Assembly (NCBI RefSeq): GCF_058153355.1
Contig: NZ_CM177019.1
Length of the DNA stretch: 64,000 nt
Strand: one strand, 5' to 3'
Positions 1-64,000 of the stretch are shown here, one piece after another (the first letter of the stretch is position 1; each line of letters opens with the position of its first letter). The notes below the pieces were generated by a model. The model did no database searches and was not told the DNA's origin. It was given only the letters and a program-made list of their open reading frames with translations. Made by a program: the position numbers and the translations under genes.

Positions 1-2
1 GT

Positions 3-389
3 TTTGATCTTCCGAGCGAAGATGAATGGGAATATTTATGTGGCGGTGGTTCCAGGACACTCTGGCGCTGGGGGAATAATTTCGACTATCAAATGAAAAT
101 CCCATTTATTACTTCAGAAGAACCAACAACCTGGGATATAGAATGGCCTAATCAGTTTGGGTTGCAGATTGCATTTGATCCCTATCTTCAGGAAATTATT
201 AATGATAAAGATATTCTTCTGAAAGGTGGCGATGGTGGGTGCAATCTCTGCGGAGGTGCTAATGTTGTATTAGGATTCTTGCCTGTGGCAACTTATTACA
301 AAGGATATAATAAACATACGGACGAATTAGAATATATGGATGACATTGGAGACAATTATACTTCTTATCGCAGAATAATTCGTTTATGA
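3..389 (+). CDS. 5'-truncated CDS at window edge; C-terminal part of a protein with a formylglycine-generating-enzyme-like (SUMF1/DUF323) signature
   Basis: Open frame runs from the window start to TGA at 387-389. Translation contains LPSEDEWEYLCGGG...WRWGN, resembling the LPTEAEWEYAARGG...PWGN core of FGE-like domains. Family call is from motif memory only. Confidence 0.35.
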   Translation, partial: FDLPSEDEWEYLCGGGSRTLWRWGNNFDYQMKIPFITSEEPTTWDIEWPNQFGLQIAFDPYLQEIINDKDILLKGGDGGCNLCGGANVVLGFLPVATYYKGYNKHTDELEYMDDIGDNYTSYRRIIRL

Positions 390-470
390 GTAAAAATTAT
401 ATTTCAGGACAAGAAGTTATGCTCGGGTCAAGCTAATGAATTGCTTAACGCAAGGAATAAAAACGTATTG

Positions 471-1952
471 ATGAACACTGGGAATTTCGAGTCGATACAA
501 ATCATGATCGACGCGCAAGAGTGGCGTAGCCTGCCGCTGCATCTGCGTCTGTATCACGCTTTTCGCCAATTGGTGATTTCCGGCGCATTGTCTGATGGCG
601 CAAAACTGCCTTCCGCTCGCGCACTGGCCCAGCAACTTGGTCTTTCCAGAGATACCATCGAAAATGCCTATTCCCAGCTCCACCGCGACGGTTTTATGGC
701 TCGCAGGCAGGGGGCCGGGAGTTTCGCCAGCCGCCAGGGGATACCGCATATTCAGGGCCAGCATGCGCAACCACCCTCGCCCGGACAAGTACCGGCTTTA
801 AGCGCTCGCTGGCAGCCAATTGCCGATCGCGCAGTCTCTTTCGATGCCCGCCAGATGCAGACCTTTACGCTTGGCCTGCCGGAAACGCGAAACTTCCCGC
901 TAAACATTTGGCAGAACTTTTCCCGCCAGATCCAACGTGAGCAGGCACATACGCTGATGTTAAATAGCGATCCGCAGGGCGAGCCACAGCTGCGCCAGCA
1001 AATTGCGCATTACCTTAATTTTGAACGCGGCGCGAAGGTAGATGCCGGGCAGATTGTGATTGTCAGCGGCGCACGGCAGGCGTTCTGGCTGTGCGGGCAA
1101 CTGCTGGCAGAGGCCGGACAGTCGGTGGCGATGGAAAATCCGGGCTATCCCGGCGCGCGTCAGGCGTTTTCTGCCGCACAGCTTAATCTTCTTCCCGTTG
1201 AAGTGGATGACGCCGGGATCCGGGTGGATAAACTGCCGCCCGCGCCGCTGGTTTACGTCACGCCCTCGCACCAGTTTCCTTCCGGTCATTTGCTCACGCT
1301 GGCGCGGCGTCATGCCCTGATTGCCTGGGCGCAGGCGCACAATGCGTGGATTATCGAAGACGACTACGACAGCGAATTTCACTACACCAGCGCGCCCGTC
1401 GCCTGTCTGCAAGGGTTAGACTGCGAGCAACGCACCCTGTATGTCGGCACTTTCAGCAAAACGCTCTATCCCGGCCTGCGCATCGGTTATCTGGTGGTGC
1501 CGACGTCGCTGGCTGCGCACTTTGCCGCCGCGCGTAATTTGCTTGATGGCGCAACGCCTGCGTTATCCCAACTAACGCTGGCGCGATTTATCGAGTCCGG
1601 TCATTTTGCCGCCCATATTCGCAACATGCGTAGTATGTATGCGGTGCGACAGGGGTGCCTGGCAGAGGCTATTCATCAGCACTTAAGTGAATGGGTCACG
1701 CCAGTGGTGACATCCGGTGGATTGCAAATGCCCTGCTGGCTGCATGGAGGTATTGATGAGCAACAGACGCTGAATGCCGCGCGCCGCGCCGGGTTAAACA
1801 TCGCCGGAATGCGCCAGTTCTGGCTGACGCACCCCGCGCACGCGGGCTGGCTGCTGGGATTCGCCGCCTTTACCCCCTACGAGATTGAACAGGGCGTCAA
1901 GCGTCTGCGGGCTGCATTATGCACTGAAAACGTGCGCCCAGCCGGGTCATAA
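471..1952 (+). CDS. MocR/GntR-family transcriptional regulator (N-terminal wHTH fused to a PLP aminotransferase-like domain)
   Basis: ORF-track 441..1952 begins at TTG. ATG at 471 sits about 13 nt after AGGAA. N-terminal HTH-like segment (LYHAFRQLVISGAL...LPSARALAQQLGLSRDTIENAY) followed by about 400 aa with aminotransferase-like features (SFSKTLYPGLRIGY). Visibly GC-rich. Confidence 0.75.
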   Translation: MNTGNFESIQIMIDAQEWRSLPLHLRLYHAFRQLVISGALSDGAKLPSARALAQQLGLSRDTIENAYSQLHRDGFMARRQGAGSFASRQGIPHIQGQHAQPPSPGQVPALSARWQPIADRAVSFDARQMQTFTLGLPETRNFPLNIWQNFSRQIQREQAHTLMLNSDPQGEPQLRQQIAHYLNFERGAKVDAGQIVIVSGARQAFWLCGQLLAEAGQSVAMENPGYPGARQAFSAAQLNLLPVEVDDAGIRVDKLPPAPLVYVTPSHQFPSGHLLTLARRHALIAWAQAHNAWIIEDDYDSEFHYTSAPVACLQGLDCEQRTLYVGTFSKTLYPGLRIGYLVVPTSLAAHFAAARNLLDGATPALSQLTLARFIESGHFAAHIRNMRSMYAVRQGCLAEAIHQHLSEWVTPVVTSGGLQMPCWLHGGIDEQQTLNAARRAGLNIAGMRQFWLTHPAHAGWLLGFAAFTPYEIEQGVKRLRAALCTENVRPAGS

Positions 1953-1956
1953 TCTC

Positions 1957-3003
1957 CTACGGGATGGTGTTGCAGGCAGCGGCAACCTGTTCCAGCGTCT
2001 GGCCTGCGCCAATAAATTCCACCTTATCGCCCGCTGTCGGCGTGACGGAGCTGGCATCGACCATAAAGCTGTCCATACAAACCCGCCCCAATACCGGTAA
2101 CCGCACGCCGCGCCAGCATACGCCCGCCGGAGGACGCATATTTCGCGGAACGCCATCCGCGTAACCCGCGGATATCGTAGCGATACGCAGCGGACGCGTG
2201 GCGGTAATCGTGCTGCCGTAGCCAACTGGCGTTCCCGCCGGGACATCCTGCACGCGCAGAATAGTTAGCGTCAGCGTAAAAGCCGGTTTTAGCGGCCTGG
2301 AAAACCACGGCTGGGCGACGCCAAACAGCGCAATCCCCGGACGGCAGAGATCTTCCCGCCAACCTGGTTGCAAAAACATTCCGCAGGAGTTCGCCAGCGA
2401 AAATCGGCTGCTGGGGAAAACCGTTTTTGCCTGCTGGAATAGCGCGTGTTGCGCCATATTTAACGCATGATCCGGCCTGTCGGCGTTCGCCAGATGGCTG
2501 ATGATATAGTCCGGCGCAGGCCAGTTACGCTCACGAAAAATCGCCGCCAGACGCATCAGTTGTTGCGGCATCATGCCCAGCCGCGACATACCAGAATCGA
2601 GCTGAATCATCACCGCGCTCCGTTGCTGGCGCGTTTCCAGTAACGTAAGCCACGCCATCACCTGGTCTACGGAATTGAGCAATGGCGTGATCTGCTGCGC
2701 GTAACAATACGCCATCGCCTCCGGCATAACCCCATTAAGCACTACCACCATCGCATCAGTGGGCAGGATTTTACGCAACGCCACGCCTTCAGAAAGCTGT
2801 GCGACAAAAAAGATCCGGCAGTTCGCCGCATACAGGGCGGGCGCAATCGCCTCCGCCCCCAGACCATAGGCATTGGCTTTCAACACCGCGCCACATTGCG
2901 CAGGGGCAGCATGGCGGGCCAGCATACGATAATTGTCGACGATGGCGGCGCGATTAACGCACATAACACCGCACGCCGCCTGGATTTCAGTAGAAGTCAT
3001 CAT
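1957..3003 (-). CDS. alanine racemase-family PLP enzyme (Alr paralog)
   Basis: 348-aa ORF with the AVLKANAYGLG PLP-lysine motif and overall colinearity with E. coli Alr. Start ATG overlaps the stop of the upstream SHMT-like gene (TAATG). GC-rich. Confidence 0.75.
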   Translation of the reverse strand: MMTSTEIQAACGVMCVNRAAIVDNYRMLARHAAPAQCGAVLKANAYGLGAEAIAPALYAANCRIFFVAQLSEGVALRKILPTDAMVVVLNGVMPEAMAYCYAQQITPLLNSVDQVMAWLTLLETRQQRSAVMIQLDSGMSRLGMMPQQLMRLAAIFRERNWPAPDYIISHLANADRPDHALNMAQHALFQQAKTVFPSSRFSLANSCGMFLQPGWREDLCRPGIALFGVAQPWFSRPLKPAFTLTLTILRVQDVPAGTPVGYGSTITATRPLRIATISAGYADGVPRNMRPPAGVCWRGVRLPVLGRVCMDSFMVDASSVTPTAGDKVEFIGAGQTLEQVAAACNTIP

Positions 3004-4238
3004 TAATAAGGCAACGGGTAGCGGTTGGTTAGTTGTATTACTTTTTGCTCAATATCGGCGCAAATGTCTGCAATATCTGATGAATTAATGGCGAAAATAA
3101 TTTCACTTATCCAGTCGGCAATCAGCGCAAAGTCATCCGCCTTCATCCCACGCGTGGTGCAGGCCGCGCTGCCAATACGAACGCCGGAGGTAATCAACGG
3201 CGGCTGCGGATCGCCCGGCAGGGTGTTTTTATTGACCGTGATCCCCGCCAGTTCGAGAAAGTACTCCACCTGTGCGCCGGTTAACCCCTGCGGGCGCAGG
3301 TCGATAATCCCCAGATGGCAGTCGGTGCCGTCCGTTAACAGCGTCAGGCCGCGCAGCGCCAGTTGCTGGCACATCGCCTGCGCATTGTCGATAACCTGCC
3401 CGGCATAACGTTTAAATTCCGGTTGTAATGCCTCGCCAAGCGCCACCGCTTTCGCTGCGATAACGTGCATCAACGGCCCGCCCTGCAAACCGGGAAAAAT
3501 GGCACTGTCGATTTTTTTCGCAAGCCTGGCGTCGTTGGTGAGGATCATGCCGCCGCGCGGCCCGCGCAATGTTTTATGCGTGGTGGTGGTGACCACATCA
3601 GCATACGCCAGCGGCGAAGGGAAACAGCCGCCCGCCACCAGCCCGGCAAAGTGCGCCATATCCACCAGCAAAATGGCGTCAACGGCATCGGCAATGCGGC
3701 GAAAACGGGCAAAATCATAGTGACGTGGATAAGCCGATCCTCCGGCAATAATCAACCGCGGGCGCTCACGCAGCGCGATCATCTCGACCTGATCCATATC
3801 AATCAAACCACTGTGCGCATCGACGCCATAGTGAAAAGCGTTAAACCATTTGCCGGATTGATTGACCGGCGAACCGTGCGTGAGATGCCCGCCGCATTGC
3901 AGGCTCATGCCAAGAATTTTGTCGCCGGGTTTCAGCAACGCCAGATGGACCGCCTGATTCGCCTGGCTGCCGGAGTGAGGCTGCACATTGACGTAACGCG
4001 CGCCAAAGAGCTGCTGCGCGCGGGTTATCGCCAGCATCTCAACCTCATCAATAAACTTACAGCCGCCGTAATAGCGATGCTGGTAATAACCTTCGGCGTA
4101 TTTATTGGTTAACACCGACCCCTGCGCCGCGAGAACGGCGGGGCTTACGAAATTCTCCGAGGCAATCAGTTCCAGCGACTGCTGCTGGCGCTGTTGCTCC
4201 TGGTTAATCAATGCAAAAAGTGGATCGTTATTTATCAT
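3003..4238 (-). CDS. serine hydroxymethyltransferase paralog (GlyA-like)
   Basis: Strong colinear similarity to GlyA ([57 protein letters not shown]). Start placed at MINNDPLF (ATG 4238), preceded by a GGGGGAAG RBS-like run; the ORF-track start at 4304 is an upstream extension. Confidence 0.85.
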
Positions 4239-4513
4239 GCGCTTCCCCCGCAAATTCATCATGCGATGATTTTCGCAGGGAAAACCTCGTCCGCACCCTG
4301 CCACTTTTTTGGGCAGGTGCAGACCACCTGTATGTCGTATTACTTAAAAGAAGAGAACATCGCTGACAATACCGGTATTAACTCCGAAATGAAGAGGGAA
4401 GAAGGCTCCGGCCATCTCCATGTGCGATTCTGGCTAGTAAAACATCATATTCCAGCTGCTCTTATCCGCCTACGTTATTGCATATACGGATAAGGCAGCC
4501 TCAATACGTACTT

Positions 4514-6067
4514 TTACTTGATATCTTTCACGCGCATACCGTTGATCTGTTCATCCGTGATGGTGTTACCCGCTTTAAAGTAATCAACCACCGCGTGATA
4601 AACGTAATAACCGCCCGTCGTATTGCGCGCTTTACCCTCGGTAAACGCGGTAAAACCATCTCCACCATCAGCAAGGAAACTCTGAGTGGCAATGTGGTAA
4701 ACCGTCGCATCTTCAATCGGTTTGCCATTCAAAGTCAGTGAGATAACCCGCTGACCAACCGGCTTGCTGCTGTCGTACTTCATTTCCAGGCCTTTCGATA
4801 CCTGTAAAACGCCATTACTTAAACTTGCGCCGTGTTCCATCAAACTGCGTAATTGTTTACCCGTGAGTTCCATCGTCACCAGTTCGTTGGGGAACGGGAA
4901 GGTACTGATGACGCCACCCATCGTAATTGCACCCGCCGGGATCTCATTGCGGATACCGCCAGAGTTGGTTAACGCCAACTGGGTATTTTTACCCGCCGCT
5001 GCCAGTAAAGCATCTGCCGCCAGGTTCCCGAGAGAAGCCGATTCACCATAGGCACGTTTTAGTTCAACCGGCGATTGCGCCACCGTTTGCTGCACGACTT
5101 CATCCAGCTTTTTATTCCAACTATCAATCACCTGTTTTGTTTGCGGATCGGGCTTCCACTCGTCGGCGTAAAGGGTTTTAAGCTCGAAGTTTTTCACCGT
5201 AAAAGTGTGCGGCTTCTCTTTGTAGTCCAGTACCAGTTTACCCACATCAATCCCACCGCTGTCAGTGGAGAGGATGAGCGTATTGCCGACTTTAATCGGT
5301 TCCGGCGTACCCACATGTGCATGCCCGGTGATCAAAATATCCAGCCCTTTCACCTGACTTGCCGTCTGAATATCTTTATCCAGTGCGCGGCGCACATCTG
5401 TGCCCCCCATACTGGACTGGCGGGCCGGAACACCTTCGTGAATCAGCGCAACGGTCAAATCAACCTTGCCTTTGAGTTCATCGATATAACGTTGTAGCCA
5501 TTTAATTTCATCACGCGCCTCAATACCCACTCGCGTTGCCGCAGATACCGTATCATTAAAGGCAAATACACCGTGCAAACCAATCACGCCAATTTTCACG
5601 CCGTCTTTTTCAATGATGGTATAGGGCTTATCCCAGAATGATTTACTGCTGTTCTGATAAAAAACATTACCCTGCACAATCGGGAATTTTGCCTGACTCA
5701 ACTGTAATAACGTATTGTCCCAGCCGTGATCAAATTCATGATTACCTATAGTGGCCGCATCGAACGGCATGGTATTCATAATATCGATAATCGCCTTGCC
5801 TTTAGTCAGGCTGCTGATATACGGCCCGGTAAAATAGTCACCCGCATCAAAAAACCAGGTCGCTTTGTTTTTAGCTTTTTCTTGTTTAACAAGCGTAGTG
5901 ATATTTGCCCAGCCGCCAATATCTCGTTTACCGTCAGCAATCCACGGCACTTTATAAGGCTCTACATGTGCATGGAGGTCGTTGGTATAAATGATGGTGA
6001 CATCTTTGGCGCAAGCCCAAAACGGCAGTGTTAATGCGATACCCGCAGCAAGCATTTTAATTTTCAT
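4514..6067 (-). CDS. secreted bifunctional metallophosphatase/5'-nucleotidase-family protein (UshA/CpdB-like), paralog 1
   Basis: N-terminal signal peptide ([20 protein letters not shown]). Metallophosphoesterase motifs NDLHAH, DAGDYF, GNHEFD, GHAH, followed by a 5'-nucleotidase C-terminal-like half. ATG 6067 follows GGAAGGGA; the ORF-track start 6073 is TTG. Confidence 0.85.
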
Positions 6068-6199
6068 AAACAATCCCTTCCAGTGAGATAAAGGATTGCT
6101 ACATTACGTTCTGAAAGGCTTTTTTATGTGAGAATACTCACATCCAGAGGCGATAACTGTAGGACAAAATCAACGACCTTATGAAATCGTTGGTGATAT

Positions 6200-7327
6200 A
6201 TGTCAAATCTGTTTGCGATTAATGTCTGTAAAACGTTCGGTTGTCGAAATTTGGGATTGGCCTCATCGGAAGATTACAGTTGGCCAGACTATAAACTGGG
6301 TTTTCCGGCACTGCACTGCCAGGCATGCGGAAGTTACCCCCCTTTGTTTGATGAACAACAATTTCGTGACTGGTTGTCAGTTCACATGACTGCGTGTGCC
6401 ATAGAAACAGGGCATTTTTGTCCATCATGCTATTGTAAAGAAAAGATTTTTTATGGCCACAACCCGCAGGGAACACAACGCGTTCAATGCCGTTCATGCA
6501 AAAAAGTCTGGACTCCGAAACAGCAGCCAGCAAGAGAAATTACGTATCCCCAGTCCATTGAAACCGTTCAACTGTTCATGCCCTTTCAAGGAGCCAGCGC
6601 AGTACAAAAGCTCTATGTTTTAGTCAGTCTTGACGCCACTCGTGGCAACATCCTTCATCTCTCCACGAATTATACGCAACATCAGACAGGAGACAGTCTG
6701 CGGTACAGTTACAGAGGCAATACAGAACCAACTGAGCACCATAGCGATATTGTGCAGAGGGTAGATATGCGTGAAGCGCAATTCTTGCGCCGGAGCCAGT
6801 TCGATGAAATTCAGTATGGCAGTGCTGTGCTCAAGCGCAACGGCAAGGGAGCCATACTACGCCCGGTTATCACGGCACACGGGCATTTCAGAATACTGAA
6901 AATCCGCTTTCCACATGTCAAAACGCATATCATTTCACACGAATGTTTTCTGAGAGGCGCAATTATTACAGCCTGGGCAGATCAGTTCCGCCAACAACAA
7001 GGCGAACTTTGGTTCGTAGAAGAAGAAATCAGCGACCGTAACGCTGATATTCCCTGGCATTTTCAGGGAACGACATACCATGGTTGGTGGCAAAATCAGT
7101 GGCAACGCTGGGGGCAGGGGAATAACAGCAAGATGGTCTGCCTGCTCACAGGAGTCTCCTTAGAAAGGGGCGCAAATGTTTCTCTGGCAACCAGTCGTTG
7201 CTTTATCACATGGCTGACAGACCAACACGACTTTACCCAAAGCGCGTTATTATCCGCAGGTCGCGTAACGAAAATGCTGACCTCACTGGCGTTAAAATAC
7301 AATGAATCGCTCAATCCATCTTGTTAG
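6200..7327 (+). CDS. hypothetical Cys-rich protein (zinc-ribbon-like N-terminus, W/Q-rich C-terminus)
   Basis: 375-aa ORF with CxxC pairs (CQACGS...CPSCYC...CRSCKK). No family I can assign with confidence. Flanked by AT-rich DNA and sits between nucleotidase paralogs. Confidence 0.5.
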   Translation: MSNLFAINVCKTFGCRNLGLASSEDYSWPDYKLGFPALHCQACGSYPPLFDEQQFRDWLSVHMTACAIETGHFCPSCYCKEKIFYGHNPQGTQRVQCRSCKKVWTPKQQPAREITYPQSIETVQLFMPFQGASAVQKLYVLVSLDATRGNILHLSTNYTQHQTGDSLRYSYRGNTEPTEHHSDIVQRVDMREAQFLRRSQFDEIQYGSAVLKRNGKGAILRPVITAHGHFRILKIRFPHVKTHIISHECFLRGAIITAWADQFRQQQGELWFVEEEISDRNADIPWHFQGTTYHGWWQNQWQRWGQGNNSKMVCLLTGVSLERGANVSLATSRCFITWLTDQHDFTQSALLSAGRVTKMLTSLALKYNESLNPSC

Positions 7328-7556
7328 TCAATACACTCGACAAACGACCATAAATTAATGGGATCACTATTTCTCATTTAATTAAATATATGAATGTATG
7401 ACTGAAAAATATAATCACAGTCAATGTTTAATTAATAACATTATTTGTTACTAAGATCACATAATACTTTCCTGACCTATGCTTACATAAAAATAAGACA
7501 CGGAGTTCCTTTTATTTAAATAATTCAACCAATGTAACAACCCCTATCAAGGAGGG

Positions 7557-9110
7557 ATGATGAGAACTGTATTTACGACTTTATCAGTCATATTCAGCGT
7601 GATGTTTTCTCACAGTATACTAGCTCAGGACGTTACTATTTATTATACGAATGATATTCACGCACATGTCAATCCGGCAAAAATTCCCGCTGTTGATAAG
7701 AACAGACTTGTAGGTGGTATGGCTAATATTGCAGGCATCGTTAATGAAGCGAAGAAAAAAAACAAAGATGTCTTTTTCTTTGATGCAGGCGACTATTTTA
7801 CCGGTCCGTATATCAGTACCCTGACCAAAGGTGAAGCTATTATTGATATCATGAACACCATGCCCTTTGATGCGGTATCCGTTGGTAATCACGAGTTCGA
7901 TCACGGCGTGCCCAATATGGTATCTCAGTTATCAAAAGCAAAATTCCCCATTCTGCTGGGAAATATTTACTACACCGATACAAATAAACCAGTTTGGGAT
8001 CATCCGTGGACCATTATCGAAAAAGATGGTTTAAAGATTGGTGTGATTGGATTGCATGGTGCATTCGCTTTCTATGATACAGTCGCGGCAAAAGCACGTG
8101 AAGGCGTAGAAGCCAGAGACGAAATTAAATATTTAAATAAAGCACTTGCAGAATTAAAAGGTAAAGTCGACATTACCGTTTTGCTAATTCACGAAGGTGT
8201 TCCGGCGCGTCAATCAAGCTTTGGTAGTAAAGATGTGGAGCGGCTACTACAGGCAGATATTGAGACAGCTAAAAAAGTGAATGGTGTTGATGTCTTAATT
8301 ACCGGTCACGCACATGTCGGAACACCGCAACCAATAAAAGTTAATAACACATTAATTGTATCTACCGATGCATACGGCACCGACATCGGAAAACTTGTGC
8401 TTGATTACAATCCGAAAACGAAGAAAATTGATAGTTATAATGGTGAGTTAATCACCATCTTCGCAGATCAATTTAAACCTGACACCATCGTTCAAAATAC
8501 TATCGATAAATGGAGTGCAAAGCTTAACAAAATAACACAGGAAGTTGTCGGCCATTCTCCCGTAGTTTTAACACGTGAGTATGGCAGTTCTTCTTCTACC
8601 GGTAACCTTATTCTTGATGCAATGATGGAAAAAACACCAGATGCCATTGCCGGATTTCAAAATAGCGGTGGGATGCGAGCTGATTTTCCTAAAGGTGATA
8701 TCACGCTGGGAGATGTTATTAGCACATTCCCCTTTAATAATGACCTCATCGAGATGGATTTGACGGGCCGCGATCTCAAATCGTTGATGACGCATGCAAC
8801 CAATCTAACTAACGGTGTGTTACAGGTTTCAAAAAGCGTTGCGGTTGTCTATGACAGCAAAAAACCACTGAACCAACGGTTAATCTCTTTCACCATTAAC
8901 GGCAAACCCGTGGAAGATAATCAAACATATCGTATTGTCACGCACTCCTTTTGTGCCAGTGGTGGTGACGGTTTTGAAGCATTTTTGAATGGAAAAAATG
9001 TGAAGACGATACCGGGAACAACCTCGGCGGAATCTATCATCGATTATTTCAAAAATCATAAACCTGTCACCCCAGACTTAACTAAACGAGTAATGGACGT
9101 CGCCAAATAA
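7557..9110 (+). CDS. secreted bifunctional metallophosphatase/5'-nucleotidase-family protein, paralog 2
   Basis: AAGGAGGG immediately upstream (ATG 7557 or 7560). Signal peptide, then NDIHAH, DAGDYF, GNHEFD, GHAH motifs; colinear with paralogs 1 and 3. Confidence 0.85.
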   Translation: MMRTVFTTLSVIFSVMFSHSILAQDVTIYYTNDIHAHVNPAKIPAVDKNRLVGGMANIAGIVNEAKKKNKDVFFFDAGDYFTGPYISTLTKGEAIIDIMNTMPFDAVSVGNHEFDHGVPNMVSQLSKAKFPILLGNIYYTDTNKPVWDHPWTIIEKDGLKIGVIGLHGAFAFYDTVAAKAREGVEARDEIKYLNKALAELKGKVDITVLLIHEGVPARQSSFGSKDVERLLQADIETAKKVNGVDVLITGHAHVGTPQPIKVNNTLIVSTDAYGTDIGKLVLDYNPKTKKIDSYNGELITIFADQFKPDTIVQNTIDKWSAKLNKITQEVVGHSPVVLTREYGSSSSTGNLILDAMMEKTPDAIAGFQNSGGMRADFPKGDITLGDVISTFPFNNDLIEMDLTGRDLKSLMTHATNLTNGVLQVSKSVAVVYDSKKPLNQRLISFTINGKPVEDNQTYRIVTHSFCASGGDGFEAFLNGKNVKTIPGTTSAESIIDYFKNHKPVTPDLTKRVMDVAK

Positions 9111-9150
9111 AATATCATTTATCAGTCTATTTATTTAACAAGGAATGCGA

Positions 9151-10770
9151 ATGAAAACAGTGCAGCGTACTTTACTTGCCGCAACATTGCTGACTATTTT
9201 TTCGGTCTCAGCCATGGCGCAGGATGTCACGATTATTTATACCAATGATCTTCACGCTCATGTGGATTCTTATAAAGTGCCGTATATCGCAGACGGAAAA
9301 CGCGACATTGGCGGCTTTGCCAATATATCTACTTTAGTAAAACAAGAGAAAGCGAAAAATAAAGCCACCTTTTATTTTGATGCTGGAGACTATTTCACCG
9401 GCCCTTATATCAGCAGTCTGACAAAGGGCGAAGCAATAATTGACATTATGAATACCATGCCTTTTGACGCAGTATCAATCGGTAATCATGAGTTTGACCA
9501 TGGCTGGGATAATGCCCTGCGACAATTAAGCAAAGCGAATTTTCCTGTTTTATTGGGCAATGTTTATCATAAAGAGAGTGAGAAACCCTTCTGGAACAAG
9601 CCCTACACCATCCTGGAAAAAGATGGCATCAAGATTGGTATTATTGGGCTACACGGCGTATTTGCATTTAATGATACGGTCTCGGAGCTCTCTCTCCAGG
9701 GACTCGATAATGACAATAATAACCGCTTTGATAAATCTTCCGAGACCCTTAAGAATCAGGGGATTGAAGCACGTGATGAAGTGAAGTATTTGCAGCATTA
9801 TATCGACGAGTTACGTGATAAGGTTGACCTCACTGTGGCGCTGGTTCATGAAGGCGTTCCGGCGCGTCAGTCCAGCATTGGCATTACAGATGTTAGACGC
9901 GCTCTTGATAAAGATATTCAAACCGCTAGCAAGGTGAAAGGATTGGATATTCTGATTACCGGGCATGCCCACGTCGGAACGCCAGAACCAATCAAAGTCG
10001 GCAACACCTTAATCCTTTCAACTGATAGTGGCGGTATCGATATTGGTAAATTAGTCCTTGATGTCAACCCTACAGCTCGTACCCATAAAATGAAGAGCTT
10101 TGAGCTGAAAACAGTTTATGCCGATGAATGGATACCCGATCCAACGACACAAAAAGTTATCAATGGCTGGAATAAAAAACTGGCGGATATTGTACGCCAA
10201 CCAGTGGGTGAATCATCGATTGCATTAACTCGCGCCTATGGTGAGTCATCGCAACTAGGCAACCTGTTTACCGATGCAATGCTTGTCGCTGCTCCGACTG
10301 CACAGATTGCATTGATAAACTCCGGCAGCTTACGTGCGGATATAAATGCAGGCACGATTACCTTTGGCGACATTACCAGTACATTCCCCTTCAAGAATGA
10401 ACTTACTGAAATGGATCTCAGCGGTAAGGATCTGCGTAACCTACTGGAACACGGGGCATCGCTTACCAATGGCATCCTGCAAATGTCAAAAGGCGCAGAA
10501 ATGCGCTATACCCCGCAGAAACCAGTAGGTCAGCGCATAGTATCTTTTAAAATTAATGGTGAAGAGATCGTTGATACGAATATTTACCATGTTGCAACAA
10601 CGACTTTCCTTGCACTGGGGGGCGATGGTTTTCTGGCATTCAAAGAAGGGAAAAATGTTCAGGTCCGCGCCGGAAAAAACATGTCCGATGTCGTGATCGA
10701 TTATTTGAAGAAAGGCCACAAGATTACGCCTGCACAGGTAAATGAAATGCGGGTGGACGTTAGCAAATAA
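9151..10770 (+). CDS. secreted bifunctional metallophosphatase/5'-nucleotidase-family protein, paralog 3
   Basis: ATG 9151 lies 7 nt after AAGGA (ORF-track start 9145). Very close to paralog 1 over most of its length but with an extra insert of about 25 aa (ELSLQGLDNDNNNRFDKSSETLKNQG). Followed by a hairpin terminator. Confidence 0.85.
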   Translation: MKTVQRTLLAATLLTIFSVSAMAQDVTIIYTNDLHAHVDSYKVPYIADGKRDIGGFANISTLVKQEKAKNKATFYFDAGDYFTGPYISSLTKGEAIIDIMNTMPFDAVSIGNHEFDHGWDNALRQLSKANFPVLLGNVYHKESEKPFWNKPYTILEKDGIKIGIIGLHGVFAFNDTVSELSLQGLDNDNNNRFDKSSETLKNQGIEARDEVKYLQHYIDELRDKVDLTVALVHEGVPARQSSIGITDVRRALDKDIQTASKVKGLDILITGHAHVGTPEPIKVGNTLILSTDSGGIDIGKLVLDVNPTARTHKMKSFELKTVYADEWIPDPTTQKVINGWNKKLADIVRQPVGESSIALTRAYGESSQLGNLFTDAMLVAAPTAQIALINSGSLRADINAGTITFGDITSTFPFKNELTEMDLSGKDLRNLLEHGASLTNGILQMSKGAEMRYTPQKPVGQRIVSFKINGEEIVDTNIYHVATTTFLALGGDGFLAFKEGKNVQVRAGKNMSDVVIDYLKKGHKITPAQVNEMRVDVSK

Positions 10771-10782
10771 TAAAAAAATTAT

Positions 10783-10816
10783 AATGCCATTCATTCACTG
10801 AATGGCATTATTTTCT
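10783..10816 (+). terminator. rho-independent terminator after nucleotidase paralog 3
   Basis: Palindrome AATGCCATTCA...TGAATGGCATT followed by a T-rich run. Confidence 0.6.
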
Positions 10817-10847
10817 CTAAATCAACAATAGATAATGAGATATATTT

Positions 10848-11708
10848 ATGTGTATAAAAAAGCACGGGATAGCTTTATCGATTCTATTAATACCTTGCAT
10901 TGGAAACGCTCAGGAAATTAAAAGTGAGGAAGGCTGGTTACATCAAAGCTTGAATGTCATTGGTCGCACAGACTCTCGCTTTGGCCCAAGGCTGACTAAC
11001 GACCTCTACCCTGAATATACTGTAGCAGGAAGAAAAGACTGGTTTGATTTTTATGGTTATGTTGATCTACCAAAATTCTTTGGCGTCGGCAGTCACTATG
11101 ATGTTGGGATCTGGGATGAGGGCTCACCACTATTTACGGAAATAGAACCTCGGTTTTCCATTGACAAATTGACCGGATTAAATCTTGCGTTCGGCCCTTT
11201 TAAAGAATGGTTCATTGCAAACAACTATGTCTATGATATGGGTGACAACCAGTCATCCCGGCAAAGTACATGGTATATGGGGCTTGGTACAGATATCGAC
11301 ACGGGTCTACCAATTAAGCTTTCTGCCAATATATACGCCAAGTATCAGTGGCAAAACTATGGTGCCGCTAATGAAAATGAATGGGACGGATATCGATTCA
11401 AAATAAAATATAGCATTCCTCTTACCCATTTATTCGGAGGGCGATTGGTATACAATAGTTTTACTAACTTTGATTTTGGATCCGATCTTGCGGACAAATC
11501 ACACAATAATAAACGAACCAGTAATGCTATTGCTTCAAGCCATATCCTTTCCCTGCTATATGAACACTGGAAATTTGCATTTACACTACGTTATTTTCAC
11601 AACGGTGGACAATGGAATGCTGGGGAGAAAGTTAACTTCGGAGATGGTCCATTTGAATTAAAAAACACAGGATGGGGAACCTATACTACTATTGGTTATC
11701 AATTTTAA
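10848..11708 (+). CDS. Tsx-family nucleoside-specific outer-membrane channel (Tsx paralog)
   Basis: 286-aa ORF with signal peptide and long colinear identity to E. coli Tsx ([70 protein letters not shown], terminal F). Confidence 0.85.
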
Positions 11709-11924: not shown

Positions 11925-14357
11925 CTACAACAACTGCGCCAGACGGTTAATATCCGACTGAATCGCCCCGGCGGTGACGTCGCGCCCTGCGCCTGGCCCA
12001 CGGATCACCAGCGGGTTGTCGCGATACCAGCGGCTTTCGATGGCAAAGACGTTATCGCACGGTAGTAGTGATGCCAGCGGATGGTCTTCTCGCACCGCTT
12101 CCACGCCTACTCGCGCTTTGCCGTTAGCATCGAAACGCGCCACGTAGCGCAACACCAGCCCCATTTCACGGGCCGCTTCCAACCGTTGTACCATCTGCTC
12201 ATTAAGTTCATCGCCATTTTCAAAGAAATGGTCGATGCTGCCACCTTCGCAATGGGTTGGCACCAGTGATTCAACACGCACCTGGTCCGGTTCAATGTTG
12301 TAACCCGCTTCACGCGCCAGAATCACCAGCTTGCGCATCACATCTTTGCCGGAGAGGTCATCACGCGGGTCAGGTTCAGTTAAGCCCTGCTGCCACGCCT
12401 GATCCACCAGCTCAGTAAACGGCACGCTACCGTCGAATTGCAGGAACAGCCAGGAGAGCGTGCCGGAGAAGATCCCGCTGATCGACAAAATAGTGTCGCC
12501 GCTGTCGATCAGATCGCGCACGGTATGGTTGATCGGCAAACCTGCGCCGACGGTGGCGTTGTATAGCCAGTGACGCCCGGTTTTTTCGAACGCGTCGTGG
12601 ATCTGTCGATATTTATTGCTGTCGCTGGCTCCCGCCAGTTTGTTGGCACTGATGACGTGGAAACCGTGGCTGGCGAAATCGAGATACTGATCAGCAAGCT
12701 GCTGGCTGGCAGTAACGTCCAGCACCACTAAATCATCATACGGATGGGCACGCATCCACAGGAACAGCGACTCTTCATCCTGTTCGACGGCTTCATCATT
12801 AAAGAAGGCTAGCGCACGGCTGGCGTCCAGCCCGTCATAGCTCAACAGGCTGCGACGGCTGTCCACCACGCCTGCCAGCACAAATTCAAAGCCGGTGCGC
12901 GCCGAGAGCGTGCTCTGCTCACGGGCGAACAGTTCCAGCCAGCGGGAACCGATATTGCCCTTACCGAACAATACCAGGCCGATGCGTTTTTCTGCGCGGA
13001 AGACGGACTGATGCAGCCCCTGAATCAGGCTTTCGGTCGGCCCGGTGCGCAGTACTGCCACCAGGCTGATGCCGTCATCGGACTGCCAGGTAAACTCGAC
13101 CGGCTGGCCTTTCAGTTGCTGCCAGAAGCGGTGGCAATGCAGCGGGTTACGGGTGACGCCCGCCCCAACCATCGCCACCAGCGCCAGCCCCTGACGCAGG
13201 CGCAGTTCGCCGGGTAATCCTGCTTCGTCGAGGATTTTCAGCGCACTGTCGGCCACTTCCGAGGTGTAGCAAAATTGCAGCAACTGGCGATCGTTATGCA
13301 CGCCAACTGCCAGTGGGCGCACCTGAGCACGTTTCAGGATTTGGTCGATCTCTTTATGCGCCAGTTTAAAATCCTGACTGGCGGGCACCTGAAACTCAAT
13401 CAAACAGACATCATCGTGGCTGGTGACAATACGCGCGCCAGTACCTGAGGCCAGCACGCGTTCAATACGCGTAGATCCTTGATCCGGTGTATAGCTACAG
13501 CGCAGCTGCAGGTCGATTTCGCTGCCAGAAACTGGCTGTAAAGTACGCGCGTGCAACACTGGCGCGGCAAGACGCGCCAGTTCACTGGCTTCATCAAGAC
13601 GCAGCAATGGCAGCAGACAGGCATCTTTCACTTTACGCGGGTCGGCACTATATACCCCGGCGACATCGCTCCAGATGGTTACGCGGGAAACCCCCGCCAG
13701 CGCACCGATTTGTGTCGCGGAATAGTCGGAACCGTTACGCCCCAGCAGCACCGTTTCACCGGCGTTGTTACGGCTGATAAACCCGGTCACCACCAGACGT
13801 TTGCCCGGATGTTGTACCAGTAGCTGTTGCAGCAACGGGTAAGAAAGCCCTTCATCAACCTGCGGCTGCGCGGCGCGTTCAGCGCGTAAAAACTCGCGGG
13901 CATCAAGCCAGGCCGCTGGCAGCCCTTGTTGATTAAGTACCGCAGACATCAGGCGCGCCGACCACACTTCACCGTGGCCCACCACTTCCGCATACACCGC
14001 ATCGTTAATACCGCTGTCGAGCAGCGCCGCCAGGCGTTCCAGATCGCTGACAAAAGCGCTAATGAGGCTATCGGCTTCTTCAGCGGGTAGCAGGCCGCTA
14101 ATCAGATCGCACTGATAGCGACGCAGCGTTTGTTGAACCTGATGCGCAGAGAGACGATCGGTCTGGCTTAGTTTCAACCAGTTAATCAACTGGTTAGTGG
14201 TGCTACCGGCGGCGGAAACCACCATCATATCGTCAGGCTGAGAGTACTCCGCCATAATGCCCGCGACACGCAAATAACACTTCACATCAGCCAGACTACT
14301 GCCACCAAATTTATGCAGTTGACGACCTTTCGCCCCTGCCTGCGCAATCACACTCAT
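11925..14357 (-). CDS. metL: bifunctional aspartokinase II / homoserine dehydrogenase II
   Basis: 810-aa ORF matching MetL in length and sequence. Two-nt gap to metB, as in the metBL operon. Confidence 0.95.
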   Translation of the reverse strand: MSVIAQAGAKGRQLHKFGGSSLADVKCYLRVAGIMAEYSQPDDMMVVSAAGSTTNQLINWLKLSQTDRLSAHQVQQTLRRYQCDLISGLLPAEEADSLISAFVSDLERLAALLDSGINDAVYAEVVGHGEVWSARLMSAVLNQQGLPAAWLDAREFLRAERAAQPQVDEGLSYPLLQQLLVQHPGKRLVVTGFISRNNAGETVLLGRNGSDYSATQIGALAGVSRVTIWSDVAGVYSADPRKVKDACLLPLLRLDEASELARLAAPVLHARTLQPVSGSEIDLQLRCSYTPDQGSTRIERVLASGTGARIVTSHDDVCLIEFQVPASQDFKLAHKEIDQILKRAQVRPLAVGVHNDRQLLQFCYTSEVADSALKILDEAGLPGELRLRQGLALVAMVGAGVTRNPLHCHRFWQQLKGQPVEFTWQSDDGISLVAVLRTGPTESLIQGLHQSVFRAEKRIGLVLFGKGNIGSRWLELFAREQSTLSARTGFEFVLAGVVDSRRSLLSYDGLDASRALAFFNDEAVEQDEESLFLWMRAHPYDDLVVLDVTASQQLADQYLDFASHGFHVISANKLAGASDSNKYRQIHDAFEKTGRHWLYNATVGAGLPINHTVRDLIDSGDTILSISGIFSGTLSWLFLQFDGSVPFTELVDQAWQQGLTEPDPRDDLSGKDVMRKLVILAREAGYNIEPDQVRVESLVPTHCEGGSIDHFFENGDELNEQMVQRLEAAREMGLVLRYVARFDANGKARVGVEAVREDHPLASLLPCDNVFAIESRWYRDNPLVIRGPGAGRDVTAGAIQSDINRLAQLL

Positions 14358-16842: not shown

Positions 16843-17094
<252 letters not shown>

Positions 17095-17098
17095 CTAA

Positions 17099-19456
<2,358 letters not shown>

Positions 19457-21699: not shown

Positions 21700-21768
21700 A
21701 TAATTGCATTATGCCCCGTACTTTTGTACGGGGTTTGTACTCTGTATTCGTAACCAAGGGGTCAGCTC

Positions 21769-22299
21769 GTGACAACTATAGTAAGCGTACGCCGTAACGG
21801 CCATGTGGTCATCGCTGGTGATGGTCAGGCCACGTTGGGCAATACCGTAATGAAAGGTAACGTGAAAAAGGTCCGCCGTCTGTACAACGACAAAGTCATC
21901 GCGGGCTTTGCGGGCGGTACTGCGGATGCTTTTACGCTGTTCGAACTGTTTGAACGTAAACTGGAAATGCATCAGGGCCATCTGGTCAAAGCCGCCGTTG
22001 AACTGGCAAAAGACTGGCGTACCGATCGCATGTTACGCAAACTTGAAGCACTGCTGGCAGTCGCGGATGAAACCGCTTCACTGATCATCACCGGTAACGG
22101 TGACGTGGTGCAGCCAGAAAACGATCTTATTGCTATCGGCTCCGGCGGCCCTTACGCCCAGGCTGCGGCGCGCGCGCTGTTAGAAAACACTGAACTAAGC
22201 GCCCGTGAAATTGCTGAAAAGGCGTTGGATATTGCAGGCGACATTTGCATCTATACCAACCATTTCCACACCATCGAAGAATTAAGCTACAAAGCGTAA
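21769..22299 (+). CDS. hslV: ATP-dependent protease subunit HslV
   Basis: 176-aa ORF; the T2 (N-terminal Thr nucleophile) follows the initiator: [20 protein letters not shown]. Confidence 0.95.
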
Positions 22300-36411: not shown

Positions 36412-36510
36412 TGCCATATGCGGCGCGAACGCCTTATACGGCCTACAAAAGTTTGCAAATTCAATAAATTGCAGAATTCATGTAGGCCTGATAAGCGAAG
36501 CGCATCAGGC
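36412..36510. repeat. REP palindromic units, pfkA-sbp intergenic
   Basis: CCATATGCGGCGCGAACGCCTTATACGGCCTACA and TGTAGGCCTGATAAGCGAAGCGCATCAGGC. Confidence 0.8.
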
Positions 36511-41489: not shown

Positions 41490-41576
<87 letters not shown>

Positions 41577-61945: not shown

Positions 61946-64000
61946 ATGCAGGTCAGCAGAAGGCAGTTCTTTAAGATCTGCGCTGGCGGTATGGCAGGCA
62001 CCACGGCAGCGGCACTGGGTTTTGCACCCAGCGTAGCACTCGCGGAAACCCGGCAGTATAAACTGCTGCGCACCCGCGAAACCCGTAATACCTGCACCTA
62101 TTGTTCCGTAGGCTGTGGGCTGTTGATGTACAGCCTCGGTGACGGAGCAAAAAACGCCAAAGCATCTATCTTCCATATCGAAGGTGACCCGGATCACCCG
62201 GTCAACCGCGGTGCACTTTGTCCCAAAGGCGCTGGCCTGGTGGATTTCATCCACTCCGAAAGCCGTCTGAAGTTTCCGGAATACCGTGCCCCTGGTTCTG
62301 ATAAATGGCAGCAAATCAGTTGGGAAGAGGCGTTTGATCGCATTGCCAAACTGATGAAAGAAGACCGCGATGCTAACTACATTGCGCAAAACGCCGAAGG
62401 CGTGACTGTTAACCGCTGGCTCTCCACCGGGATGCTGTGTGCTTCCGCGTCGAGTAACGAAACCGGCTATTTAACGCAAAAATTCTCCCGCGCGCTGGGT
62501 ATGCTCGCGGTCGACAACCAGGCGCGTGTCTGACACGGACCAACGGTAGCAAGTCTTGCTCCAACATTTGGTCGCGGTGCGATGACCAACCACTGGGTCG
62601 ACATCAAGAACGCCAACCTCGTCGTGGTGATGGGCGGTAACGCCGCTGAAGCTCACCCGGTCGGGTTCCGCTGGGCGATGGAAGCCAAAATTCACAACGG
62701 CGCGAAGCTGATTGTGATCGATCCTCGCTTTACGCGTACGGCGGCGGTGGCTGACTACTATGCCCCTATTCGTTCCGGTACTGACATTGCTTTCCTGTCA
62801 GGCGTATTGCTGTACCTGCTGAACAATGAAAAATTCAACCGCGAATACACCGAAGCCTATACCAACGCCAGCCTGATCGTGCGTGAGGATTACGGCTTTG
62901 AAGATGGCCTGTTCACCGGCTACGACGCGGAAAAACGCAAGTACGATAAATCCTCCTGGACCTACGAGCTGGACGAAAACGGCTTCGCCAAACGCGATAC
63001 CACGCTGCAACATCCGCGCTGCGTGTGGAACTTGCTGAAACAGCACGTTTCCCGTTATACGCCAGATGTGGTTGAAAACATCTGTGGCACGCCGAAAGAC
63101 GCGTTCCTGAAAGTCTGCGAATACATCGCAGAGACCAGTGCTCACGATAAAACTGCCTCGTTCCTTTACGCGCTCGGCTGGACGCAACACTCCGTTGGTG
63201 CGCAGAACATTCGTACGATGGCGATGATCCAGCTACTGCTCGGCAATATGGGGATGGCAGGCGGCGGCGTTAACGCCCTGCGCGGTCACTCCAACATTCA
63301 GGGGCTGACGGACCTGGGGCTGCTGTCGCAGAGCCTGCCAGGTTACATGACGCTGCCAAGCGAGAAGCAGACCGATCTGCAAACCTACCTTGCCGCCAAC
63401 ACGCCAAAACCACTGCTGGAAGGCCAGGTTAACTACTGGGGCAATTACCCGAAATTCTTCGTCTCCATGATGAAGGCCTTCTTTGGTGATAAAGCGACGG
63501 CAGAAAACAGCTGGGGCTTTGACTGGTTGCCGAAGTGGGATAAAGGCTACGACGTCCTGCAATACTTCGAGATGATGAAAGAGGGCAAGGTCAATGGCTA
63601 TATCTGCCAGGGCTTTAACCCTGTTGCCTCATTCCCGAACAAAAACAAAGTGATCGGTTGTCTGTCGAAACTGAAGTTCCTCGTCACTATCGACCCGCTG
63701 AACACTGAAACCTCTAACTTCTGGCAGAACCACGGTGAGCTGAACGAAGTGGACTCGTCGAAGATCCAGACCGAAGTGTTCCGTCTGCCATCGACCTGCT
63801 TCGCGGAAGAGAACGGTTCAATCGTTAACTCCGGTCGCTGGTTGCAGTGGCACTGGAAAGGTGCGGACGCCCCAGGGATTGCGCTGACTGATGGCGAGAT
63901 CCTCTCCGGTATCTTCCTGCGCTTGCGCAAGATGTACGCCGAACAGGGTGGCGCGAACCCGGACCAGGTGCTGAACATGACCTGGAACTACGCCATCCCG
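61946..64000 (+). CDS. fdoG: formate dehydrogenase-O major subunit (selenoprotein), 3'-truncated by window end
   Basis: Tat signal MQVSRRQFFKICAGGMAGTTAAALG; N-terminal Fe-S Cys cluster (CTYCSVGCG). In-frame TGA at 62531-62533, after which the frame continues without stops (HGPTVASLAPTFGRGAMTNHW...) to the window end. Confidence 0.92.
62531..62533 (+). other. selenocysteine (UGA recoding) codon of fdoG
   Basis: In-frame TGA at the conserved Sec position (codon 196), with conserved molybdopterin-enzyme sequence on both sides. Confidence 0.85.
62534..62573 (+). other. putative SECIS stem-loop downstream of the Sec codon
   Basis: Outer arms GACCAA/TTGGTC and inner arms AGCA/TGCT can pair in the roughly 40 nt immediately 3' of the UGA, where bacterial SECIS elements lie; the fold was not computed. 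Confidence 0.45.

Follow-up and report, generated by a model that had tools for sequence, protein, structure and literature searches.

In Salmonella enterica serovar Enteritidis, island ROD34 encodes a "third alanine racemase", Alr3 or SEN3897 (Ray et al. 2018, PMC6040060). The purified protein racemises alanine (Km 89 mM for L-Ala, 35 mM for D-Ala) and resembled Alr and DadX kinetically in this single study; its listed active-site residues include Lys42 and Tyr349 (PMC6040060). SEN3897 was poorly expressed in LB and did not rescue an alr dadX mutant (PMC6040060). A second set of related systems is governed by PdxR-type MocR regulators, whose predicted proteobacterial regulons include GlyA-family serine hydroxymethyltransferases (SHMTs) (Suvorova & Rodionov 2016, PMC5320631). 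The operators of MocR proteins usually consist of TGG/TGT direct repeats spaced by 1-3 helical turns, and amino compounds frequently act as effectors of these regulators (PMC5320631). A literature search returned nothing on an SHMT-racemase pair as a unit, nor any biochemical study of the SHMT paralog described below.

The window analysed here is a stretch of 64,000 nt from contig NZ_CM177019.1 (assembly GCF_058153355.1). A preliminary description had noted in it a GC-rich module in which the genes of an SHMT-like and an alanine-racemase-like enzyme overlap. The block at 471-4330 is indeed GC-rich, at 57.9% vs. 38-48% in the flanks and 50.8% in the whole window. It comprises the SHMT gene (SHMT2), the racemase gene (alr3), the gene of a MocR-family regulator and a conserved block of ~95 nt upstream of SHMT2 (Table 1). 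We consider these elements to form a self-contained, ~3.9-kb unit, or cassette, that is accessory and was acquired horizontally; as part of the best explanation of the locus, we assign this reading a probability of roughly 0.7.

Table 1. Features of the cassette and its upstream flank, in window coordinates
Feature	Position	Strand	Remarks
MocR-family regulator, PdxR-like	471..1952	+	493 aa, intact; GntR HTH and aminotransferase-like PLP domain
Orphaned alr3 3′ end	1897..1956	-	19 sense codons and ancestral stop (1899-1897), downstream of premature TAG
alr3 pseudogene, alanine racemase isozyme	1957..3003	-	348 aa, cut by TAG (1959-1957) at Tyr349
SHMT2/alr3 stop/start overlap, TAATG	3001..3005	-	stop TAA 3005-3003, start ATG 3003-3001; read directly from sequence
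SHMT2, accessory serine hydroxymethyltransferase	3003..4238	-	411 aa, intact
Conserved control region of cassette	4239..4330	-	direct repeats, then palindrome/hairpin; block kept across contexts
REP-like hairpin, boundary element outside cassette	4446..4508	-	directly past nucleotidase stop; RNAfold -32.5 kcal/mol
5′-nucleotidase gene	6067/6073->4514	-	upstream of SHMT2

The overlap of the SHMT2 stop and the alr3 start was as the preliminary description had given it. In all relatives, SHMT2 is one codon longer (…YQ-TGA) and is joined to the Alr3 gene by a 4-nt ATGA overlap; in the window and in E. fergusonii, the CAA that forms the final SHMT2 codon of the relatives has become TAA. Stop/start overlaps of 1 or 4 nt are common between operon genes and are unremarkable alone. 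Unlike the overlap by itself, the retention of this junction exceeds chance: all lineages and genomic contexts compared share it, at a synonymous divergence of up to ~1. No Shine-Dalgarno-like purine run preceded the racemase ATG in any lineage compared. Because the overlap is conserved and the racemase start lacks such a sequence, SHMT2 and the racemase gene very probably constitute a conserved, translationally coupled unit, which bears out the co-translation proposed earlier. The start of SHMT2 itself is probably the ATG at 4238-4236, with GGGGGAAG ahead of it; with an in-frame GTG at 4304 as start, the protein would have the 433 aa annotated for it in E. fergusonii.

The regulator was assigned to the PdxR-like MocR proteins according to NCBIfam model NF052282, against which it scored 427 bits (cutoff 320). 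It scored nearly as high, 423 bits, against the rhizopine MocR model, but the cutoff of the latter is 650. Domains PF00392 and PF00155 were both present. The gene converges on alr3, extends 56 nt into the ancestral 3′ end of the latter, and has a dN/dS of 0.08-0.14. It accompanied the enzyme pair in every context examined and is thus the third member of the conserved unit. The two-enzyme unit of the preliminary description therefore holds insofar as the pair is conserved, but it overlooked this convergent partner. Conservation between contexts ended at the regulator ATG, and no conserved promoter of its own was found, the sequence being alike across contexts only to that ATG. Relatives of the regulator in Janthinobacterium, ~50% identical to it, adjoin BenE, a predicted pyridoxine transporter. 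No SHMT or Alr gene was found near the ~50% identical homologs of Janthinobacterium and Pseudomonas in the contexts inspected, two of which included a neighbouring BenE.

At the opposite end of the cassette, the ~95-nt block was kept in four different genomic contexts, with conservation starting exactly at GGTGGTCTGC. It contains two TGG-type direct repeats, GTGGTCTGC (4327-4319) and GTGGCAGGG (4304-4296), which represent a candidate operator assigned from only 4-5 closely related sequences. Downstream of these, an imperfect palindrome (4285-4241) covers the Shine-Dalgarno sequence of SHMT2. As a leader hairpin, this element was more stable than shuffled sequences in three lineages (z = -4.9, -3.5 and -2.0) and displayed one compensatory pair as well as several one-sided changes that preserve pairing. 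The conserved palindrome could therefore be an mRNA hairpin instead, which would imply a different control mechanism. Between 1800 and 4700, no Rfam match to a ZTP, THF or glycine riboswitch was obtained even at E <= 1, and a simple scan of the conserved block revealed no convincing sigma-70 promoter or terminator. A metagenome scan with a 19-nt leader pattern yielded 120 matches; since only one of these was real, from an E. coli-type cassette, the set of sequences for testing covariation became no more diverse.

The cassette occurred in at least three contexts: in the metL-metF island of Salmonella and Escherichia, beside ICE-type genes, and beside an NEL-effector gene. Between contexts, conservation had sharp limits at both cassette edges, and a search for terminal repeats or IS ends around the cassette returned only short repeats at chance level. 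Values of dN/dS across the cassette genes, 0.07-0.24, indicate purifying selection. Among 5426 complete E. coli genomes, only three carried the cassette and 5425 possessed glyA elsewhere, in agreement with the earlier suggestion that these genes are accessory rather than housekeeping copies. In each of the three carriers, the SHMT gene had been interrupted independently by a nonsense mutation, such as the Gln-to-stop changes at codon 281 (CP027579) and codon 20 (CP053258). At one locus (L217), the Alr protein had an in-frame deletion of 32 aa, and other cassette alleles in the protein database were frameshifted or shortened. We infer that the cassette is a decaying remnant in Escherichia. A scan of 100,044 species-representative genomes with racemase peptide patterns yielded no cassette, and its best racemase match was 45% identical ("Enterobacteriaceae bacterium B14"); evidently, either these genomes do not carry the cassette or the patterns fitted Salmonella too narrowly.

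The 5′-nucleotidase gene lies upstream of the pair on the same strand, as described previously. The 275-nt spacer between it and SHMT2 holds the REP-like hairpin, and the nucleotidase block has a GC content of 40-48% vs. 58% in the cassette. Neither the nucleotidase gene nor the hairpin was present at the ICE-adjacent and NEL-adjacent cassettes. Because the cassette moves among at least three genomic contexts, we do not consider the nucleotidase to be part of it.

SHMT2 scored 605 bits against NCBIfam NF000586 (cutoff 335), the match covering residues 7-409 of 411. Its matches in the PDB included E. coli GlyA (1DFO, 464 bits) and 6YMD (519 bits). Using an E. coli reference sequence verified against 1DFO, we compared the active site of SHMT2 and six relatives. 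The Schiff-base lysine of the TTTTHKT motif was retained in all seven, and the ligands of the PLP ring and phosphate (D200, H126, S175, S97/S99, Y55 and R235 in E. coli) were identical. SHMT2 also kept the carboxylate-binding R363 and the folate and catalytic residues E57, Y64, Y65, L121, G125, L127, F257, P258 and N347. On this evidence, the SHMT2 proteins look like canonical folate-dependent SHMT isozymes rather than transaldolases or otherwise specialised enzymes. P60Y (E. coli numbering), which lies near the E57-Y65 substrate loop, was the sole substitution that all cassette proteins share at a site otherwise invariant; the 98 canonical SHMTs in the comparison all have the proline. The window protein is 99% identical to E. 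fergusonii "SHMT 2" (CAQ91260) and 92-93% identical to the Salmonella orthologs, with a dN/dS of 0.07-0.09. It carries two unique substitutions at conserved sites, Y98H and G303D, and may thus be impaired too. One further sequence, from a 2.5-kb contig at 2.7x coverage, appeared to represent an SHMT lineage at 73%. Its C-terminus was identical to that of the window protein, so it looks chimeric and was set aside.

The racemase scored 216 bits against TIGR00492 (cutoff 168), and PF01168 and PF00842 were both found on its orthologs. Its top PDB match was the Bartonella Alr 3KW3 (E = 2e-86). Judged by sequence, the window gene is the ortholog of SEN3897: the proteins are 82% identical and the Lys42/Tyr349 numbering of SEN3897 fits the window protein. 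The two catalytic bases, Lys39 and Tyr265′, were retained, as were the PLP ligands Arg219, Arg136, Tyr43 and Ser204 (Geobacillus numbering, from a sequence verified against 1L6F). By contrast, the codon for Tyr349, the equivalent of Geobacillus Tyr354, a phosphate ligand and entryway residue, is TAG. This position was Tyr in all five relatives and in 107 of 107 homologs. The ancestral frame runs 20 codons on to its stop, relatives being 368 aa long, and read-through of the TAG would append EIMTRLGARFQCIMQPADA, in agreement with the C-termini of full-length relatives. The segment lost corresponds to helix 348-355 and the terminal strand 360-364 of an AlphaFold model (pLDDT 91), so that the window copy possesses neither Tyr354 nor a complete C-terminal β domain. 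For these reasons, we filed it as a pseudogene of the alanine racemase family, and the truncated protein is presumably inactive. A database protein of 348 aa, "alanine racemase [E. coli]", is 100% identical to it. The truncation had escaped the preliminary description. In intact relatives, the active sites of both enzymes are complete and canonical.

Together, these features are consistent with the following scheme. The pair would be transcribed from its own weak, activator-dependent promoter inside the conserved block, where the TGG direct repeats would serve as binding sites for the MocR protein, which would respond to PLP or an amino compound. The racemase would then be translated by termination-reinitiation at the ATGA/TAATG junction. 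In the window strain, only SHMT2 and the regulator would still be able to work, because the truncated racemase is probably inactive. The scheme fits the Salmonella data: SEN3897 is active yet too weakly expressed to rescue D-alanine auxotrophy because the operon is probably uninduced in LB.

As to what the cassette does, it is possible, if unlikely, that it provides a conditional backup for two PLP enzymes that share poisons or stresses, switched on by a PdxR-like sensor. In Salmonella, GlyA and Alr/DadX are among the enzymes documented to be hit in vivo by 2-aminoacrylate (PMC7023182, PMC12172467). The same reading gains from the match of the regulator to the PdxR model, the BenE neighbours of its Janthinobacterium relatives, the GlyA paralogs in predicted proteobacterial PdxR regulons (PMC5320631) and the scant expression of Alr3 in LB (PMC6040060). 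Nevertheless, the case is purely circumstantial: the cassette contains neither RidA nor a PLP-synthesis gene, Alr3 resembled Alr and DadX kinetically in one study (PMC6040060), and selection in Escherichia appears weak, given how often one partner has been lost. Candidate stresses include 2-aminoacrylate, D-cycloserine or β-halo-alanines, PLP shortage, and an excess of glycine displacing alanine in peptidoglycan. In a more specific version, which we consider unlikely, the cassette is a module of spare parts in which the PdxR-like MocR, possibly together with the hairpin covering the Shine-Dalgarno sequence, switches on a replacement SHMT and a replacement alanine racemase. If true, this would explain why two otherwise unrelated enzymes are joined in one translational unit and travel together.

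The preliminary description had favoured for the pair a pathway for D- or β-hydroxy amino acids. In this model, the racemase would supply L-amino acids from D-Ser, D-Thr or allo-Thr for cleavage to glycine by the SHMT. SHMTs have a folate-independent threonine/allo-threonine aldolase side activity and alanine racemases a weak serine racemase activity, both of which count for this proposal, as do the accessory and co-regulated nature of the pair and the P60Y change of all cassette SHMTs. The amino compounds that often serve as MocR effectors would also suit it (PMC5320631). Despite these points, the proposal did not hold up well, and we regard it as distinctly unlikely. The folate-binding residues of SHMT2 are all kept, and the Tyr354 equivalent is Tyr in the relatives, as in alanine-specific enzymes, whereas VanT has Asn. 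VanT models scored far under their cutoffs (NF033131, 168 bits vs. 460); on the residue and the score, a VanT-type serine racemase was rejected. In the contexts compared, no transporter, deaminase, dehydrogenase or downstream catabolic gene was conserved with the cassette. Finally, the Salmonella ortholog is a demonstrated and efficient alanine racemase; a term search of that paper gave no mention of serine, and other substrates are apparently unreported (PMC6040060).

Scarcely credible is the link to nucleoside-antibiotic pathways, in which SHMT2 would be a LipK/ObiH/fluorothreonine-type transaldolase acting with the nucleotidase on nucleoside-derived aldehydes: the nearby same-strand 5′-nucleotidase is its only support, and against it stand a TIGR04506 score of 150 bits vs. 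a cutoff of 650, the intact folate site, the location of the nucleotidase in a separate low-GC block behind a strong hairpin, the absence of that gene from two other cassette contexts, and the absence of other biosynthetic genes nearby.

To return to the cassette as an acquired, accessory unit, the window genome, an Escherichia genome, holds a mostly known, decaying feature: its racemase is truncated, both enzyme types are textbook ones, and the racemase was already shown biochemically in Salmonella (PMC6040060). The repeated, independent knock-outs of one or the other partner provide a natural test, if a small one, of whether both activities are required jointly. For Salmonella, phenotypes of SEN3897 deletions should be interpreted with caution, as polar or regulatory effects within the cassette are possible.

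Compared with known systems, SHMT2 belongs to the same family as housekeeping GlyA (1DFO) and shares with it every catalytic, PLP, substrate-carboxylate and folate-binding residue. Unlike GlyA, it is accessory and carries P60Y; its DNA similarity to E. coli glyA is confined to a 227-nt stretch (~70%), and its nearest non-cassette relatives are the GlyA proteins of alpha- and beta-proteobacteria (~65%). The nearest non-cassette homologs of the racemase are likewise alphaproteobacterial, namely the Alr proteins of Bartonella henselae (3KW3) and Brucella/Ochrobactrum (41-49% identity), with which it has in common a Gln where Geobacillus has the carbamylated Lys129. The gene neighbourhood of the cassette was absent from 81 Alr loci sampled among species-representative genomes, mainly cyanobacterial, Firmicutes and actinobacterial with few alphaproteobacterial: no SHMT or MocR gene lay within 7 kb of any of them.

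The regulator resembles those of the PdxR-type regulons in passing the PdxR model and in having a GlyA-family gene as likely target and a candidate TGG direct-repeat operator (PMC5320631). It differs in that no pdx, BenE or YggS gene lies beside it, and in that the cassette includes an alanine racemase, which is not among the regulon members noted from the supplement of that study (PMC5320631). The regulator is also convergent with its presumed target; most MocR systems are divergent.

The closest counterpart is SEN3897/Alr3. The window copy differs from it by the TAG at Tyr349 and the loss of the last 20 residues, and shares with it 82% identity, equal Lys42/Tyr349 numbering and the best PDB relative, 3KW3. 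In Typhi and other S. enterica, the gene lies between the same SHMT and MocR genes, inside the same metL-metF island. Term searches of the SEN3897 paper gave no mention of a coupled SHMT or a MocR regulator, and this setting does not appear to be considered there (PMC6040060). Seen in this setting, Salmonella Alr3 is not a stand-alone racemase but the second cistron of a mobile SHMT-Alr-MocR unit with a conserved control region.

The serine hydroxymethyltransferase gene SHMT2 and the racemase gene alr3 form a pair on the minus strand, within a block (471-4330) of 57.9% GC, as against 38-48% in the flanks and 50.8% over the entire window. The region forms an island, bounded by metL, which is 98.9% identical to that of E. 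coli, and by metF, which lies just past the window's left end. The identity of metL, and those of the two encoded enzymes to Escherichia sequences, show the host to be an Escherichia. Only three of 5426 complete E. coli genomes carried the pair, each at the metL-metF site, and an ordinary glyA was present in 5425. This rarity, together with the near-universal glyA, indicates that SHMT2 and alr3 are accessory copies and not the primary genes, which bears out the non-housekeeping status assigned to them in the preliminary description.

Features of the SHMT2-alr3-MocR locus and of the surrounding window
Feature	Coordinates	Strand	Remark
MocR-type regulator gene	471-1952	+	converges on racemase gene
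Racemase-like ORF (alr3)	ATG 3003-3001	-	TAATG overlap with SHMT stop, 3005→3001
SHMT-like ORF (SHMT2)	ATG at 4238; stop TAA 3005-3003	-	start preceded by GGGGGAAG
Imperfect palindrome, conserved	4285-4241	-	directly upstream of SHMT start
Candidate operator, TGG-type direct repeats	4327-4319 and 4304-4296		GTGGTCTGC and GTGGCAGGG, 23 nt apart
5'-Nucleotidase gene	6067→4514	-	upstream of SHMT; paralog 1
375-aa 'cytoplasmic protein'	6200-7327		conserved in all metL-metF island versions
Nucleotidase paralog 2	7557-9110		54-66% mutual identity among the three
Nucleotidase paralog 3	9145-10770		N-termini of the three resemble signal peptides
Tsx-like nucleoside channel gene	10848-11708
metL	11925-14357
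L31 leader	17062-17114		Rfam
ClpQY promoter element	21714-21771		Rfam
ES036 sRNA	36448-36489		Rfam
naRNA4	41494-41571		Rfam
SECIS element	62528-62586		Rfam

The real unit comprises three genes, SHMT2, alr3 and the MocR regulator gene, which occurred together and in unchanged arrangement in every context examined. These contexts were the metL-metF island, in Escherichia as well as in Typhi and other Salmonella, a site beside ParA/DnaB/DUF2857 genes of the sort found in integrative elements, and a site with a NEL-type effector gene on one side and a LacI/MalI-type regulator on the other. Conservation between contexts begins exactly at GGTGGTCTGC, ~95 nt upstream of the SHMT start, and ends at the ATG of the regulator. 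The upstream nucleotidase gene is absent from two contexts and differs in base composition, and is therefore a neighbour, not a member, of the cassette. It is separated from SHMT2 by 275 nt, the first part of which is a REP-like hairpin (-32.5 kcal/mol). Among copies outside the window, one adjoins an effector gene encoding a NEL domain (IpaH/SspH-type E3 ligase) (L217, 140-1783), and another adjoins ParA/DnaB/DUF2857 integrative-element genes with AbiEii toxin genes (L007, 1-9390). These neighbours are consistent with movement of the cassette on mobile DNA.

We aligned SHMT2 with E. coli GlyA, whose sequence was confirmed to be identical to 1DFO, and 98 canonical SHMTs. All PLP ligands, the Schiff-base lysine, the carboxylate-binding arginine and all folate-binding residues were retained, and P60Y was the sole cassette-wide substitution at an otherwise invariant position. 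SHMT2 scored 605 bits against a curated SHMT model (cutoff 335) and just 150 bits against a fluorothreonine transaldolase model (cutoff 650). The protein is 99% identical to E. fergusonii "SHMT 2". The racemase scored 216 bits against the alr model (cutoff 168), and its closest solved structure is the Bartonella enzyme 3KW3 (E = 2e-86). In an alignment with the Geobacillus enzyme, whose sequence was checked against 1L6F, relatives of the racemase retain Lys39, Tyr265', Arg219, Arg136, Tyr43, Ser204, Met312', Asp313' and Tyr354; the last position is Asn in VanT serine racemases. The Salmonella Enteritidis ortholog, SEN3897, is active on alanine when purified, with Km values of 89 mM for L-Ala and 35 mM for D-Ala, and has 42% identity to 3KW3 (PMC6040060). 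Given the family-model scores and retained active-site residues, SHMT2 and Alr3 look like ordinary isozymes, not retooled for D-serine, threonine or aldehyde acceptors.

The pairing of these enzymes had been taken to suggest a D- or β-hydroxy amino acid pathway. The residues, family scores, published biochemistry and gene neighbourhood give no support to that reading, and still less to the proposed link to nucleoside transaldolases. The pair is a real feature, rightly spotted but over-interpreted. Of the marks by which primary genes were to be recognized, namely tight clustering with canonical GlyA and Alr and a lack of other copies, the chemistry was indeed canonical; the proteins did not cluster with the host GlyA and Alr, and they are not the only copies.

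We also examined the gene junction and control region. In all relatives, the SHMT ends in …YQ-TGA, which overlaps the racemase ATG as ATGA; in the window and E. fergusonii, a CAA→TAA change one codon earlier yields TAATG. In none of the lineages compared is the racemase ATG preceded by a Shine-Dalgarno-like run. The overlap and the lack of such a run make it likely that the racemase is translated by termination-reinitiation at the SHMT stop, in agreement with the coupling originally proposed. The regulator combines a GntR HTH with an aminotransferase-like domain and scored 427 bits against the PdxR model (cutoff 320). MocR operators are usually TGG/TGT direct repeats spaced by one to three helical turns, and GlyA-family genes occur within predicted proteobacterial PdxR regulons (PMC5320631). 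The conserved block upstream of SHMT2 contains both the TGG-type direct repeats, a candidate operator, and the palindrome. On the few lineages compared, the palindrome, which matched no Rfam family, may be either a DNA operator or an mRNA hairpin; as RNA, it would pair with and sequester the Shine-Dalgarno sequence. Its stability exceeded that of shuffled sequence in three lineages (z = -4.9, -3.5 and -2.0), and pairing was preserved despite several one-sided changes, with one compensatory change. SEN3897 is poorly expressed in LB and does not rescue an alr dadX double mutant, and its deletion attenuates the strain (PMC6040060). The weak expression fits an operon that would be activator-dependent and uninduced in LB.

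On circumstantial evidence, and with low probability, the two linked enzymes could form a stress- or cofactor-responsive backup module: 2-aminoacrylate is documented to hit GlyA and Alr/DadX, among other enzymes, in Salmonella in vivo (PMC7023182, PMC12172467), the regulator resembles PdxR, and relatives of it adjoin a predicted pyridoxine transporter gene.

The window copy of alr3 is probably a pseudogene. Codon 349, a Tyr codon in all relatives, is TAG, followed in the ancestral frame by 19 more sense codons and the ancestral stop (1899-1897). In the AlphaFold structure predicted for a full-length E. coli copy (pLDDT 91), the missing segment comprises helix 348-355 and terminal strand 360-364. 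Database entries named "alanine racemase [Escherichia coli]" match the truncated protein at 100% identity. In relatives, the convergent 3' ends of alr3 and mocR share 56 nt (window 1897-1952), coding on both strands; the premature TAG (1959-1957) lies just outside this overlap and so leaves the regulator unaltered.

Long-term selection on the cassette is purifying, with dN/dS of 0.07-0.09 for SHMT, 0.15-0.24 for Alr and 0.08-0.14 for MocR. Despite this, broken copies are common: SHMT Gln→stop at codon 281 (CP027579) and codon 20 (CP053258) in E. coli, Alr Tyr349→stop in the window, a 32-aa in-frame Alr deletion in L217, and truncations and frameshifts in further database alleles. All three genes are intact in many Salmonella. 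Three SHMT2 substitutions (Y98H, G303D and S348L; 3006-4238) were found only in the window copy, two of them at positions conserved in canonical SHMTs (a Tyr/Phe and the Gly of the GGTD motif); they may reflect early relaxed selection following racemase loss. Synonymous divergence between Escherichia and the Salmonella locus L004 was 0.41-0.56 for the three genes, about half that of the flanks (metL, 0.96; nucleotidase, 1.24), which hints at later inter-genus exchange or codon-usage constraint.

Window 1-470 is AT-rich (38% GC) and carries, at 93-389, the 3' end of a gene for a hypothetical protein, present in full in E. coli 2013C-4282; E. coli GF4-3 has a PTS EIIC gene and malI at this position, indicating that the left part of the island is mosaic. 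The low-GC block at 4514-11708 (40-48%), with its three paralogous 5'-nucleotidase/metallophosphatase genes and the Tsx-like channel gene, looks like a nucleoside/nucleotide scavenging island. Salmonella and GF4-3 have a single nucleotidase copy and no tsx-like gene at metL-metF. The 375-aa protein gave only a marginal match to an InsA/IS1-type zinc ribbon (Pfam E = 0.04; NCBIfam IS1, 20 bits, cutoff 100). The five Rfam matches, all above gathering score, would be unsurprising in a core enterobacterial chromosome.

Island ROD34 of S. Enteritidis carries SEN3897, which Typhimurium lacks; Lys42 and Tyr349 are the reported active-site residues of SEN3897 (Ray et al. 2018, PMC6040060). The window racemase is 82% identical to SEN3897, with exactly matching Lys42/Tyr349 numbering, and the Salmonella ortholog is listed by NCBI as "alanine racemase 3". 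To the published account we add that Alr3 is part of a mobile SHMT2-Alr3-MocR cassette, and the window locus is an Escherichia, probably pseudogenised member of this already known kind.
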